Position numbers and translations under genes: made by a program. Under the pieces are notes generated by a model. That model had not been told where the DNA came from. It worked only from the letters and a program-made list of their open reading frames with translations, and searched no databases. A stretch of DNA of 63,087 nucleotides, the filler included, from Sarea resinae (lineage: Eukaryota): the NCBI GenBank assembly GCA_026026165.1. It is 3 parts of 3 records of this genome, joined end to end, with 100 filler letters (N's around TTAATTAATTAA, not from the genome) between each part and the next. Parts side by side here need not be neighbours in the genome. Positions count along the whole stretch, not along the records: positions 22,435 to 43,720 come from JAPEUD010000132.1; 2 more parts are not named here. The stretch is one strand, 5' to 3'. This document shows positions 21,246 through 24,333 of this stretch, in pieces (the first letter of the stretch is position 1; every line of letters starts with the position of its first letter).

Positions 21246-22334
21246 TCAACATTTCGTTGCGTATCTATCTATCTTTAAAACCTCCTCGATCTAAGCAGGC
21301 ATTGAGTCTACCTACTTGTTGAAATTCTGCTTAGCCACTAAACGATCCCACTCTGATTTTGCTGCTTGCTAGAGATCCTCTAGGTTATTGTACACCTTAG
21401 GCTAGTGCTTGATTCTCTGCTTCATAGCCCCCCACATATTTTCATTAGGGTTAAGATCTAGTGAAGAAGGGGGCCAAATTAGACTCCTAAGACCTGCTCC
21501 TTTCCTCTACTTAACAGCCTCCTTTGAGCGATGAATAGGTGCGCTGTCTTCTATAAGTAGTGGATCTATATTTAGAGACTGTAGATGATAAAATGCTGGT
21601 TCGATCTATAGTTCAAGCACTTGTTCTATATAGTCAACAGTGCCTATCCCATTTTTTATCTCTCCTCCACGTCTAATTTTATTTGTAGGCTTAAGCTTCA
21701 CTAGCTCTGTTGCTCTACTGTACTAGATGCCTCTCTAGACTATTACTAAGCCTCTGCCTAAGTGTCAAGTCTTAACAGTGCAGTCAGGGCAGAACCTTTT
21801 AAAGGACCTTCTTATCACCTATTTCTTTCCTTTTATCCCTGTGTTAAAAGAGGATTTATCGGTCTAAATAACGCGTCGCTACTGATCCACAGTCTAGTCC
21901 TTATGCTTCTTCGCAAAATCCAGCCTTTTCTTGCGATTGATTTTGTTAATAAATGGCTTAAAACAGGCTGTGCATTTGTGGAAGCCAATACATGCAAGGG
22001 CATTGCAAATTGTTGTACAACAGGCCTGGATTTCTAGCTCTTTTGCCTAAACTAAATAGGATGCTTGCCTTGCATCTGCTGATTCACATATCCTTCGTGT
22101 AAGTTGTCTGAGCAAACAGTCGCTGATTTTTAGTGGTTAGCCTTTGCGTCCTCCTGGATCGCGTTGCGAAGATTTTTGACCGATGATACGCCTCACAGTG
22201 CTGCGCGGGACCTGGGTAAGCTGGGAAATTCTAGTATAGCCCACGTCGCTCGCCTGATGCAGAGTTCGTATCTGCTTTCGTTTTGTATCGTTCCATTCGC
22301 ATTGTGGCCCAGGGCGTGGCGGCGAAGAATTCAT
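21246..22334 (-). mobile_element. Tc1/mariner DD34E transposase relic, RIP-inactivated; 5' end runs into the gap
   Basis: N-terminal HTH (GYTRISQLTQVPRSTVRRII), FAKKHKD*TVDQ*RRVI*TDKSSF (Trp TGG>TAG three times), EDSAPIH followed by exactly 34 residues then E in WPPSSLDLNPNENMW, and a SMPA*IEEVLK..ATKC* tail. Confidence 0.92.
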
Positions 22335-22434
22335 NNNNNNNNNNNNNNNNNNNNNNNNNNNNNNNNNNNNNNNNNNNNTTAATTAATTAANNNNNNNNNN
22401 NNNNNNNNNNNNNNNNNNNNNNNNNNNNNNNNNN
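22335..22434. other. Assembly gap with artificial TTAATTAATTAA stop-linker
   Basis: N-run interrupted by a palindromic linker with stops in all frames; the same linker occurs in the second gap. Confidence 0.95.
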
Positions 22435-22537
22435 CCCCCCCACCAGACCCCCACAATATCCTAAAAACAAGGAAAATGAAACCCCTAACAATGGCCATCC
22501 CCACTAATGCACTCAATCTCTGCGCCTGAGTAAACAG

Positions 22538-23763: not shown

Positions 23764-23934
23764 TCAGGCTTGACGGGCCCACATATTAGCATAAATTCTC
23801 CACCGGAATCATTCGAGGGAAGAGCGGGCGTGACTTACCTCATTAAATCAGAATTTTCAGTGTATGGTACGTTCATCACCGACCACCCTCGTTACAAGGC
23901 AGCCGGTTCAAACAGTGTGAATAGTGATCATCAT
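23764..23934 (-). ncRNA. snR51: Box C/D snoRNA snR51, apparently interrupted by a 70-nt intron (23769-23838)
   Basis: Box C ATGATGA 23934-23928. D' guide TATTCACACTG (LSU CAGUGUGAAUA; yeast Um2729 site). D guide TGATTTAATGAG|C-CTGA (18S GCUCAUUAAAUCA; yeast Am100 site) is complete only after splicing. Confidence 0.85.
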
Positions 23935-24086
23935 ATAAAGAGATGGTGCTGCCGGATTATGTATAGAGGACAAGGCGGAGAAAGCAAATTATTACCTGTC
24001 AAGTCTGGATGACAGTTAGCGTTCGACGTTCTTCTGTGGAATATAACACAGCGCCAGCGAAGCATAATTTCGTGCGTATTGGGTGA

Positions 24087-24209
24087 TCAGCTGACGAATT
24101 CTCAACAAGTATCTCTCCAAGCCCCACCCAACAAAGTTTGTACGCTTTGTTTTTGACGGATGGGGATGGGGAGTACAGTCTGTCCGCCCGTTCGTTCAAA
24201 TTTCCTCAT
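24087..24209 (-). ncRNA. snR70: Box C/D snoRNA snR70-like
   Basis: Box C ATGAGGA; guide ACGGGCGG-A-CAGA(D') complementary to 18S CCGCCCGU, with D'+5 landing on the yeast Cm1639 equivalent; terminal CTGA; positioned between snR41 and snR51 as in the yeast cluster. Confidence 0.75.
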
Positions 24210-24333
24210 GGTGTCGCAGGAGGGAGGCAGGCAGATGAAGAGCATGTGGGTGTGTACCTGTAATTAATTTGAACGTTAGCTGCGGTGTCTCACTTGCCGA
24301 AAGGCGAGGCGTAAGCAGGAGATTGAATTGAAC

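Follow-up and report, generated by a model that had tools for sequence, protein, structure and literature searches.

The window analysed here, a 63,087-nucleotide stretch of Sarea resinae DNA taken at its full length, carries on its minus strand what is probably the orthologue of yeast snR51 (Afu-277 in Aspergillus fumigatus, CD6 in N. crassa). In this reading, the snoRNA is split by a 70-nt spliceosomal intron and lies within a 331-nt host intron, and its RNA is spliced and then trimmed to guide the snR51 sites. The preliminary description of this DNA had proposed such an intron within a snoRNA within an intron. The proposal is now supported by four lines of evidence: the intron is present in 75 of the 76 listed relatives of the intron-bearing type, the exact junction is found in intronless relatives, the stem at the distal box D shows covariation, and one RNA contig, weak when taken alone, joins the two halves.

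A snR51 homologue is present on the minus strand of the window, and every element that had been named beforehand, namely the guide, GTAAGT, GCTAAT, AAG and C-CTGA, was found on that strand in the place it had been given. The elements discussed below are as follows, in the direction of the RNA.

23995-23665, minus strand: outer host intron, 331 nt, GTAATA ... GGCTGACC ... TAG, delimited by splice signals
23947-23941, minus strand: 5' strand of the terminal stem, ACCATCT, a perfect 7-bp complement of 23759-23753
23934-23928, minus strand: box C, ATGATGA, aligning to box C of Rfam snR51
23923-23912, minus strand: D' guide TATTCACACTGT of snR51 (25S type), with no difference from the Rfam family consensus across UAUUCACACUGU
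23911-23908, minus strand: degenerate box D', TTGA, its position deduced by the fifth-nucleotide rule
23879-23873, minus strand: box C', GTGATGA, with ATGA/TGATGA-like sequences at the same place in relatives among the matches listed
23863-23852, minus strand: invariant element ACACTGAAAATT, equal to the D guide of snR67, to which the Rfam snR67 model aligns with high posterior
23851-23839, minus strand: exon-1 part of the 18S guide, CTGATTTAATGAG, identical at 12 of 12 positions to the Rfam snR51 consensus CUGAUUUAAUGA
23838-23769, minus strand: inner spliceosomal intron ("intron B"), 70 nt, with donor, branch site and acceptor, at the same site in relatives
23838-23833, minus strand: inner donor, GTAAGT
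23790-23785, minus strand: inner branch site, GCTAAT
23771-23769, minus strand: inner acceptor, AAG
23768-23764, minus strand: last guide nucleotide C (23768) and box D, CTGA (23767-23764), directly 3' of the acceptor AAG
23759-23753, minus strand: 3' strand of the terminal stem, AGATGGT, just past the distal CTGA and containing the CAG discussed below

The box order and both guides are those of yeast snR51 (RF01214), and so is the register of the D guide once the intron is removed. Yeast snR51 and the other intronless forms are continuous, whereas the form in the window is interrupted by 70 nt. Removal of 23838-23769 brings the spacing between AATGA and CTGA to 2 nt, as in the Rfam snR51 consensus, so that counting five nucleotides back from box D arrives at the same position of the guide that it does in yeast snR51. 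The box D spacing of snR51 is found only after this removal and fails on the unspliced sequence. The proposed restoration of the snR51 D+5 register by splicing is thus borne out, and the computed lengths, 70 nt for the intron and 101 nt from the start of box C to the end of box D after its removal, agree with those given in the preliminary description. The predicted 18S and 25S targets are taken from identity to the Rfam consensus, published tables and general knowledge. The D' box of snR51 is divergent (van Nues 2011); TTGA or GTGA is kept at the box D' position in relatives among the matches listed. Between box D' and box C', a stem is topped by the loop TTGTAACGA (23897-23889, minus strand), for which GTAACGA or GTAAACGA stands in many of the relatives among the matches listed, although these diverge elsewhere.

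The displacement of box D is also visible in the family model. In a permissive Rfam scan of the genomic sequence, snR51 (RF01214) aligns to 23938-23836 with 31.2 bits, and the gathering score of 44 is not reached. The alignment contains UGAUGA, UAUUCACACUGU and CUGAUUUAAUGA with high posterior, and the deleted consensus positions are the 2-nt spacer and box D only. The shortfall is explained by the box D lying 70 nt away in the genomic sequence. A composite pattern (the guide, GTRNGT, CTRAY and AG-N-CTGA) has a single match in the 63-kb window and no match in 100 dinucleotide-preserving shuffles.

The inner intron has the features of a U2-type intron: a GT donor, a CTRAY branch site, an acceptor of the YAG/AAG type, and fungal spacing and length. 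Its insertion point leaves a single nucleotide ahead of box D, and its distances to the outer donor and the outer branch site are 157 nt and 75 nt, respectively. Nested introns of the stwintron type, whose inner intron splits one of the splice signals of the outer, are known in filamentous fungi. The arrangement in the window resembles these and other nested introns of Pezizomycotina, in that one intron encloses another and it is important which of them is spliced first. It is not a stwintron, because the inner intron breaks the snoRNA cargo and leaves the outer splice signals intact. Spliceosomal introns are also found in other small-RNA genes, such as those of the fungal U3 snoRNA and the fission yeast U6 snRNA. 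The likeness is that an mRNA-type intron stands in a stable non-coding RNA and is spliced out before the RNA works. The U3 and U6 genes are independent transcription units, whereas the snoRNA of the window is itself intron-encoded, which gives two nested splicing events.

Relatives were collected from metagenome contigs with a pattern that fixed only the two guide cores and left the intron and box D free. The guide sequence was set by the search, and for this reason its conservation is no evidence in itself. At least 116 loci matched; 95 unique loci are among the matches listed, or 96 with the window. These 95 comprise one chance match without box C (L017), four loci that end 16–40 nt past the guide and are too short to classify (L011, L048, L064 and L112), 14 intronless loci and 76 loci of the intron type, defined by a G and a donor-like hexamer after the guide with at least 120 nt of downstream sequence.

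The intron was expected in relatives if the split reading held, and it was found there: 75 of the 76 intron-type relatives listed carry an intron of 46–68 nt, with a donor of the GTNNGT type, at the identical position, followed by N and CTGA. Counted with the window, all 76 classified intron loci among the matches listed run directly from the acceptor into box D as AG-N-CTGA, where N is C in 58, G in 12, A in 5 and T in 1. In the same set, with the window included, the donors are GTATGT (33), GTACGT (10), GTAAGT (9) and rarer variants with one GC donor among them, the acceptors are CAG (35), AAG (23) and TAG (18), and a CTRAY branch site is present in 75 of the 76 loci. Mean identity between loci is 0.56 in the intron interior, about that of unrelated sequence aligned in the same way, and 0.65 in the snoRNA interior outside the search pattern. 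The sole intron-bearing relative listed without AG-N-CTGA, L108, has the acceptor TAG followed by CCCGA, a T to C change in box D; this could reflect decay of the copy or a variant that is tolerated.

The intronless relatives provide the complementary picture. All 14 among the matches listed read AATGA, two nucleotides and CTGA, the two nucleotides being GC in nine, CT in about four to five (rows of the form AATGAC|TCTGA) and GA in one. The nine read AATGAGCCTGA, which is the exact junction predicted for the window, and the presence or absence of the inner intron is thus precise among the homologues listed. The metagenome collection may include transcript assemblies, where genomic intron loss and spliced RNA look alike. 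The Rfam gathering score for snR51 is passed by all eight intronless relatives scanned (46.3–93.2 bits), while none of the four intron-bearing relatives scanned gives a snR51 match at E ≤ 0.01. Two intronless loci, L088 and L061, have nearest listed relatives that are all intron-bearing, at identities of 0.88 and 0.84, respectively. They look like cases of precise intron loss, or they are transcript-derived contigs. L088 has Afu_294 just downstream, and L061 keeps ACACTGAAAATT.

In box C/D snoRNAs, the sequences flanking box C and box D usually pair in a short closing stem. In the window, such a stem is formed with the distal box D: the duplex of its own flanks has an energy of −13.5 kcal/mol, and the stem is present in the minimum free energy fold of the spliced RNA. 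The same holds across relatives. In 65 flank-unique intron loci among the matches listed, pairing of the 5' flank with the locus's own distal 3' flank has a mean energy of −9.17 kcal/mol, compared with −5.05 kcal/mol in 4150 mismatched pairs (Mann–Whitney p 8e-9, a generous value, as are all p-values for the stem, since related loci are not independent). An energy of −8 kcal/mol is reached by 57% of own pairs and 17% of mismatched pairs in these 65 listed loci. Helices of 6 bp or more occur in 54 of 90 loci among the matches listed, against 26.8% of controls, and come in 40 distinct sequences, which indicates that pairing has been kept through compensatory change. The 18S guide CTGATTTAATGAG itself opens with a CTGA, the upstream CTGA. 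Pairing of the 5' flank with what follows this motif did not differ from mismatched pairs in the 65 listed intron loci (−7.30 vs −7.24 kcal/mol, p 0.59). These comparisons point in a clear direction, that is, to the distal box D as part of the snoRNA.

The stem also bears on a switch suggested in the preliminary description, in which a competing CAG acceptor (23758) would delete box D and turn the snoRNA on or off. The CAG exists at 23760-23758, but it lies within the 3' strand of the conserved terminal stem (23759-23753). An AG within 15 nt past box D is found in 46 of 72 loci among the matches listed, as expected from a stem strand of the AGATG type. The single junction seen in RNA uses AAG, and run X1 contains no RNA evidence of use of the CAG. 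A regulated alternative acceptor at this site is therefore not supported and was set aside.

RNA was taken from one wood-decay metatranscriptome run (X1), which holds 0.07 of the sampled words; its contigs were aligned at 80% likeness, and stretches that they leave uncovered (e.g., 23894-24163) are uninformative. One contig, with a depth of 5.69, joins 23839 to 23768. It skips exactly 70 nt with GT..AG ends on the minus strand, and its shorter side is 21 nt. The contig diverges from the window after 23748 and may derive from a related or intronless organism; it is counted as a weak hint. The host gene is better covered. A contig of spliced host RNA, 358 nt long, consists of 24861-24748, 24542-24485, 60 unplaced letters and 23390-23300, with no differences from the window in the first two pieces and six in the last. 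It confirms the intron 24747-24543 and the removal of the whole region from snR41 to Afu_294 (24484-23391) from the mature host RNA. The 60 unplaced letters stand where a predicted exon of 49 nt (23664-23616) is expected. Either this exon has diverged in the sampled organism or the exon structure differs.

The nesting of the snoRNA in the host intron 23995-23665 is likewise upheld. The outer donor GT is at 23995, the branch site GGCTGACC at 23694-23687 and the acceptor AG at 23666-23665, these boundaries being read from the sequence and not from RNA, and the whole region is gone from the host contig. The last exon of that contig starts at 23390 and adjoins the intron 23615-23391, which contains the next snoRNA. 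The neighbours in the same non-coding host gene are as follows.

24424-24332, minus strand: Afu_455 (snR41 type), upstream neighbour, with an Rfam score of 68 bits (gathering score 48)
about 24209-24087, minus strand: snR70-like box C/D unit, comprising ATGAGGA (C-like, 24209-24203), AACGGGCGGACAGACTG, and TTGTTGAGAATTCGTCAG with CTGA (24090-24087) after it
23548-23463, minus strand: Afu_294, downstream neighbour, located in the following host intron (23615-23391), with an Rfam score of 72.8 bits (gathering score 43)

The snR51 of the window is the last member of a snR41-snR70-snR51 cluster, and the same Rfam order is found in L027 and L053. The snR70-like unit at 24209-24087 gives no Rfam snR70 match even at E ≤ 10; its blocks are nearly invariant in 10 relatives among the matches listed. 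Four short RNA contigs of run X1 sit on 24175-24212. A further candidate box C/D unit lies at 24694-24612 (minus strand) inside the first host intron (24747-24543), with ATGATGA at 24690-24684 and CTGA at 24618-24615, and no Rfam family matches it at E ≤ 10 on the minus strand. By its position, this unit would be the U45-type snoRNA that Luo et al. 2013 and Liu et al. 2009, as far as their descriptions of the cluster were consulted, put at its head. Apart from the gene, two runs of N at about 22327-22436 flank TTAATTAATTAA. With stops in all frames, this string resembles a synthetic scaffold linker and is attributed to the assembly rather than to biology.

The snoRNA introns of the window appear to be juxtaposed without exons. 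On splice signals only, an AG is followed at once by a GT at 24260/24259 and at 23996/23995 (minus strand), and the AG|GT before the snR51 intron is kept in the aligned relatives among the matches listed. Use of another AG, nine bases further upstream (24007-24006), would give a micro-exon of 9 nt. The juxtaposition agrees with the "intron-intron-intron" structure reported by Luo et al. 2013 (PMC3596301), in which introns I–III adjoin without exons and two extra snoRNA introns stand in the cluster, one before snR41 and one after snR51.

The split arrangement of snR51 was described in that same work, so that "unusual" is a fair word for it and "new" is not. Luo et al. 2013 (PMC3596301) reported an "intron B" between the antisense element and box D of the Euascomycete snR51 and dated it to the Euascomycete ancestor. 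It concerns the same gene and the same position, nested in the host intron III that carries snR51, and the window holds the orthologue of another species. In the sections of Luo et al. consulted, the 42 ESTs concern the outer introns I–III and not the removal of intron B, and the covariation of the terminal stem and the snR67-like element, which are treated here, are not discussed. Besides this paper and those of Joechl et al. 2008, Liu et al. 2009 and Canzler et al. 2018, a literature search found no other report on the point, and a search for RiboMeth-seq in filamentous ascomycetes found none.

While the anatomy, conservation and covariation of the split snoRNA are established here, we infer the order of events, the trimming and the methylation. 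The inner intron would be spliced from the primary transcript first, as in the one junction contig, so that ...AATGAG is joined to CCTGA and the 18S guide stands directly on box D in the yeast register. The outer intron would be removed next; of this stage, the RNA shows only the complete removal of the region. The debranched intron would then be trimmed by exonucleases, as is general in snoRNA biology, to the snoRNP set by the C/D kink-turn and the 7-bp stem 23947-23941/23759-23753. The product, about 101 nt from box to box, would guide the 25S site via box D' and the equivalent of 18S A100 via box D.

The main challenge to this pathway comes from the element ACACTGAAAATT and the upstream CTGA that follows it. 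In the snR67 alignment, the D guide and box D of the model fall on ACACTGAAAATT and CTGA 23851-23848, and, judged by sequence, the two could guide a site of the 25S-2724 type. Among the matches listed, 31 of 65 intron loci, which otherwise vary freely, share the 12-mer without change, as does one of 14 intronless loci, and this invariance asks for a function. A role in extra base-pairing, as van Nues 2011 uses the term, was considered for it. Its 25S target presumably overlaps that of the D' guide, on the rRNA sequence as we take it to be, so that ACACTGAAAATT and the D' guide cannot both bind one rRNA at once. It is possible, although on balance doubtful, that splicing picks the guide: the spliced RNA would use the distal box D for the 18S site, and the RNA with a retained intron would be trimmed to a snoRNP formed on box C and the upstream CTGA, giving an RNA of about 95–100 nt with ACACTGAAAATT as its D guide for the 25S-2724-type site, which in yeasts is served by snR67.

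Published cloning and target predictions lend this idea some of its weight. Canzler et al. 2018 (PMC5824354) predicted the 25S-2724 site, which is the snR67 site, as a D-box target of the snR51 family in Onygenales and part of Dothideomycetes, and reported that snR67 itself lost that target outside Saccharomycotina. Two cDNAs of different size are also on record. In A. fumigatus, Afu-277, the middle member of the cluster Afu-455/Afu-277/Afu-294, was cloned four times as a 100-nt cDNA with predicted targets at 26S Um2706, 18S Am97 and a 5.8S site (Joechl et al. 2008, PMC2377427). A box immediately 3' of the guide is required for the 18S prediction, a hint that the cDNA was spliced. Afu-277 is listed there as intergenic, and splicing is neither stated nor mentioned in the parts of the paper drawn on, whereas the RNA of the window is nested in an intron with Afu_455 and Afu_294 on either side; Rfam has no family for Afu-277. 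In N. crassa, CD6, the snR51 homologue of cluster III, is a 76-nt, "exon-encoded" cDNA, with 26S-Um2687 (D') as the sole target listed (Liu et al. 2009, PMC2780460). Its D' target is of the same class as that of the window, and its reported size, without an 18S target, fits an RNA that ends before the intron.

A further point in favour of two forms is that weak AAG acceptors are enriched where the 12-mer is present (18 of 35 loci, against 3 of 37 without it; Fisher p 6e-5, among the matches listed). If both forms exist, this excess would be a tuning of the ratio between them; it may equally be a clade effect. The short form also lacks the terminal-stem signal described above, the intronless L061 has the 12-mer as well, which makes the element independent of the intron, and no read of a short-form RNA was seen in run X1. 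Finally, A. fumigatus has a separate snoRNA, Afu-380, predicted for the neighbouring 26S Um2701 (PMC2377427, in the parts consulted).

It is less probable still, and in our view unlikely, that the short form is the only product. The mature snoRNA would then end at the upstream CTGA, the tail taken for an 18S guide would be a relic that now forms the end of the exon and the surroundings of the donor, and the 70 nt would be an ordinary host intron. The 76-nt CD6 cDNA, with its D' target alone, fits such an ending and counts against the split reading, as does the family annotation of Canzler et al. 2018 (PMC5824354), whose D target uses the upstream CTGA. In the window, the tail TTTAATGAG pairs with the 5' flank CTCTTTATA at 7 of 9 positions. 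This pairing was rejected as a conserved short-form stem because, across loci, there is no signal above mismatched controls: the flanks vary while the tail is fixed. The short form alone leaves unexplained why N and CTGA stand right after the acceptor in 75 of the 76 listed relatives with the exact 2-nt register, and why the 5' flank covaries with sequence past the distal CTGA. A decaying or silent copy, with an intact snR51 elsewhere in the genome doing the work, would accord with the sub-threshold Rfam score, and the search for a second match to the guide pattern, which found none, was confined to the 63-kb window, but this is very improbable, as the boxes, both guides, the splice signals and the terminal stem are all intact, the architecture is the same in 75 divergent relatives among the matches listed, and the host gene is expressed and spliced in run X1.

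The split-snoRNA reading, as the preferred one, has consequences for annotation. With box D displaced by an intron, covariance-model annotation misses or truncates snR51 in filamentous ascomycetes, as the 31.2 bits of the window against the threshold of 44 illustrate, and the published family annotation closes snR51 at the upstream CTGA (Canzler et al. 2018, PMC5824354, as far as consulted). To the earlier description of intron B, the present analysis adds a broad metagenomic confirmation, the covarying terminal stem, which links the distal box D with the snoRNA, and the short alternative form as a question. Across filamentous ascomycetes the arrangement is conserved widely, and the inner intron cleanly marks a single gain of ancient date in this group. 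An intron between a methylation guide and its box D makes the function of the snoRNA dependent on splicing within an intron, and this is a rare dependency.
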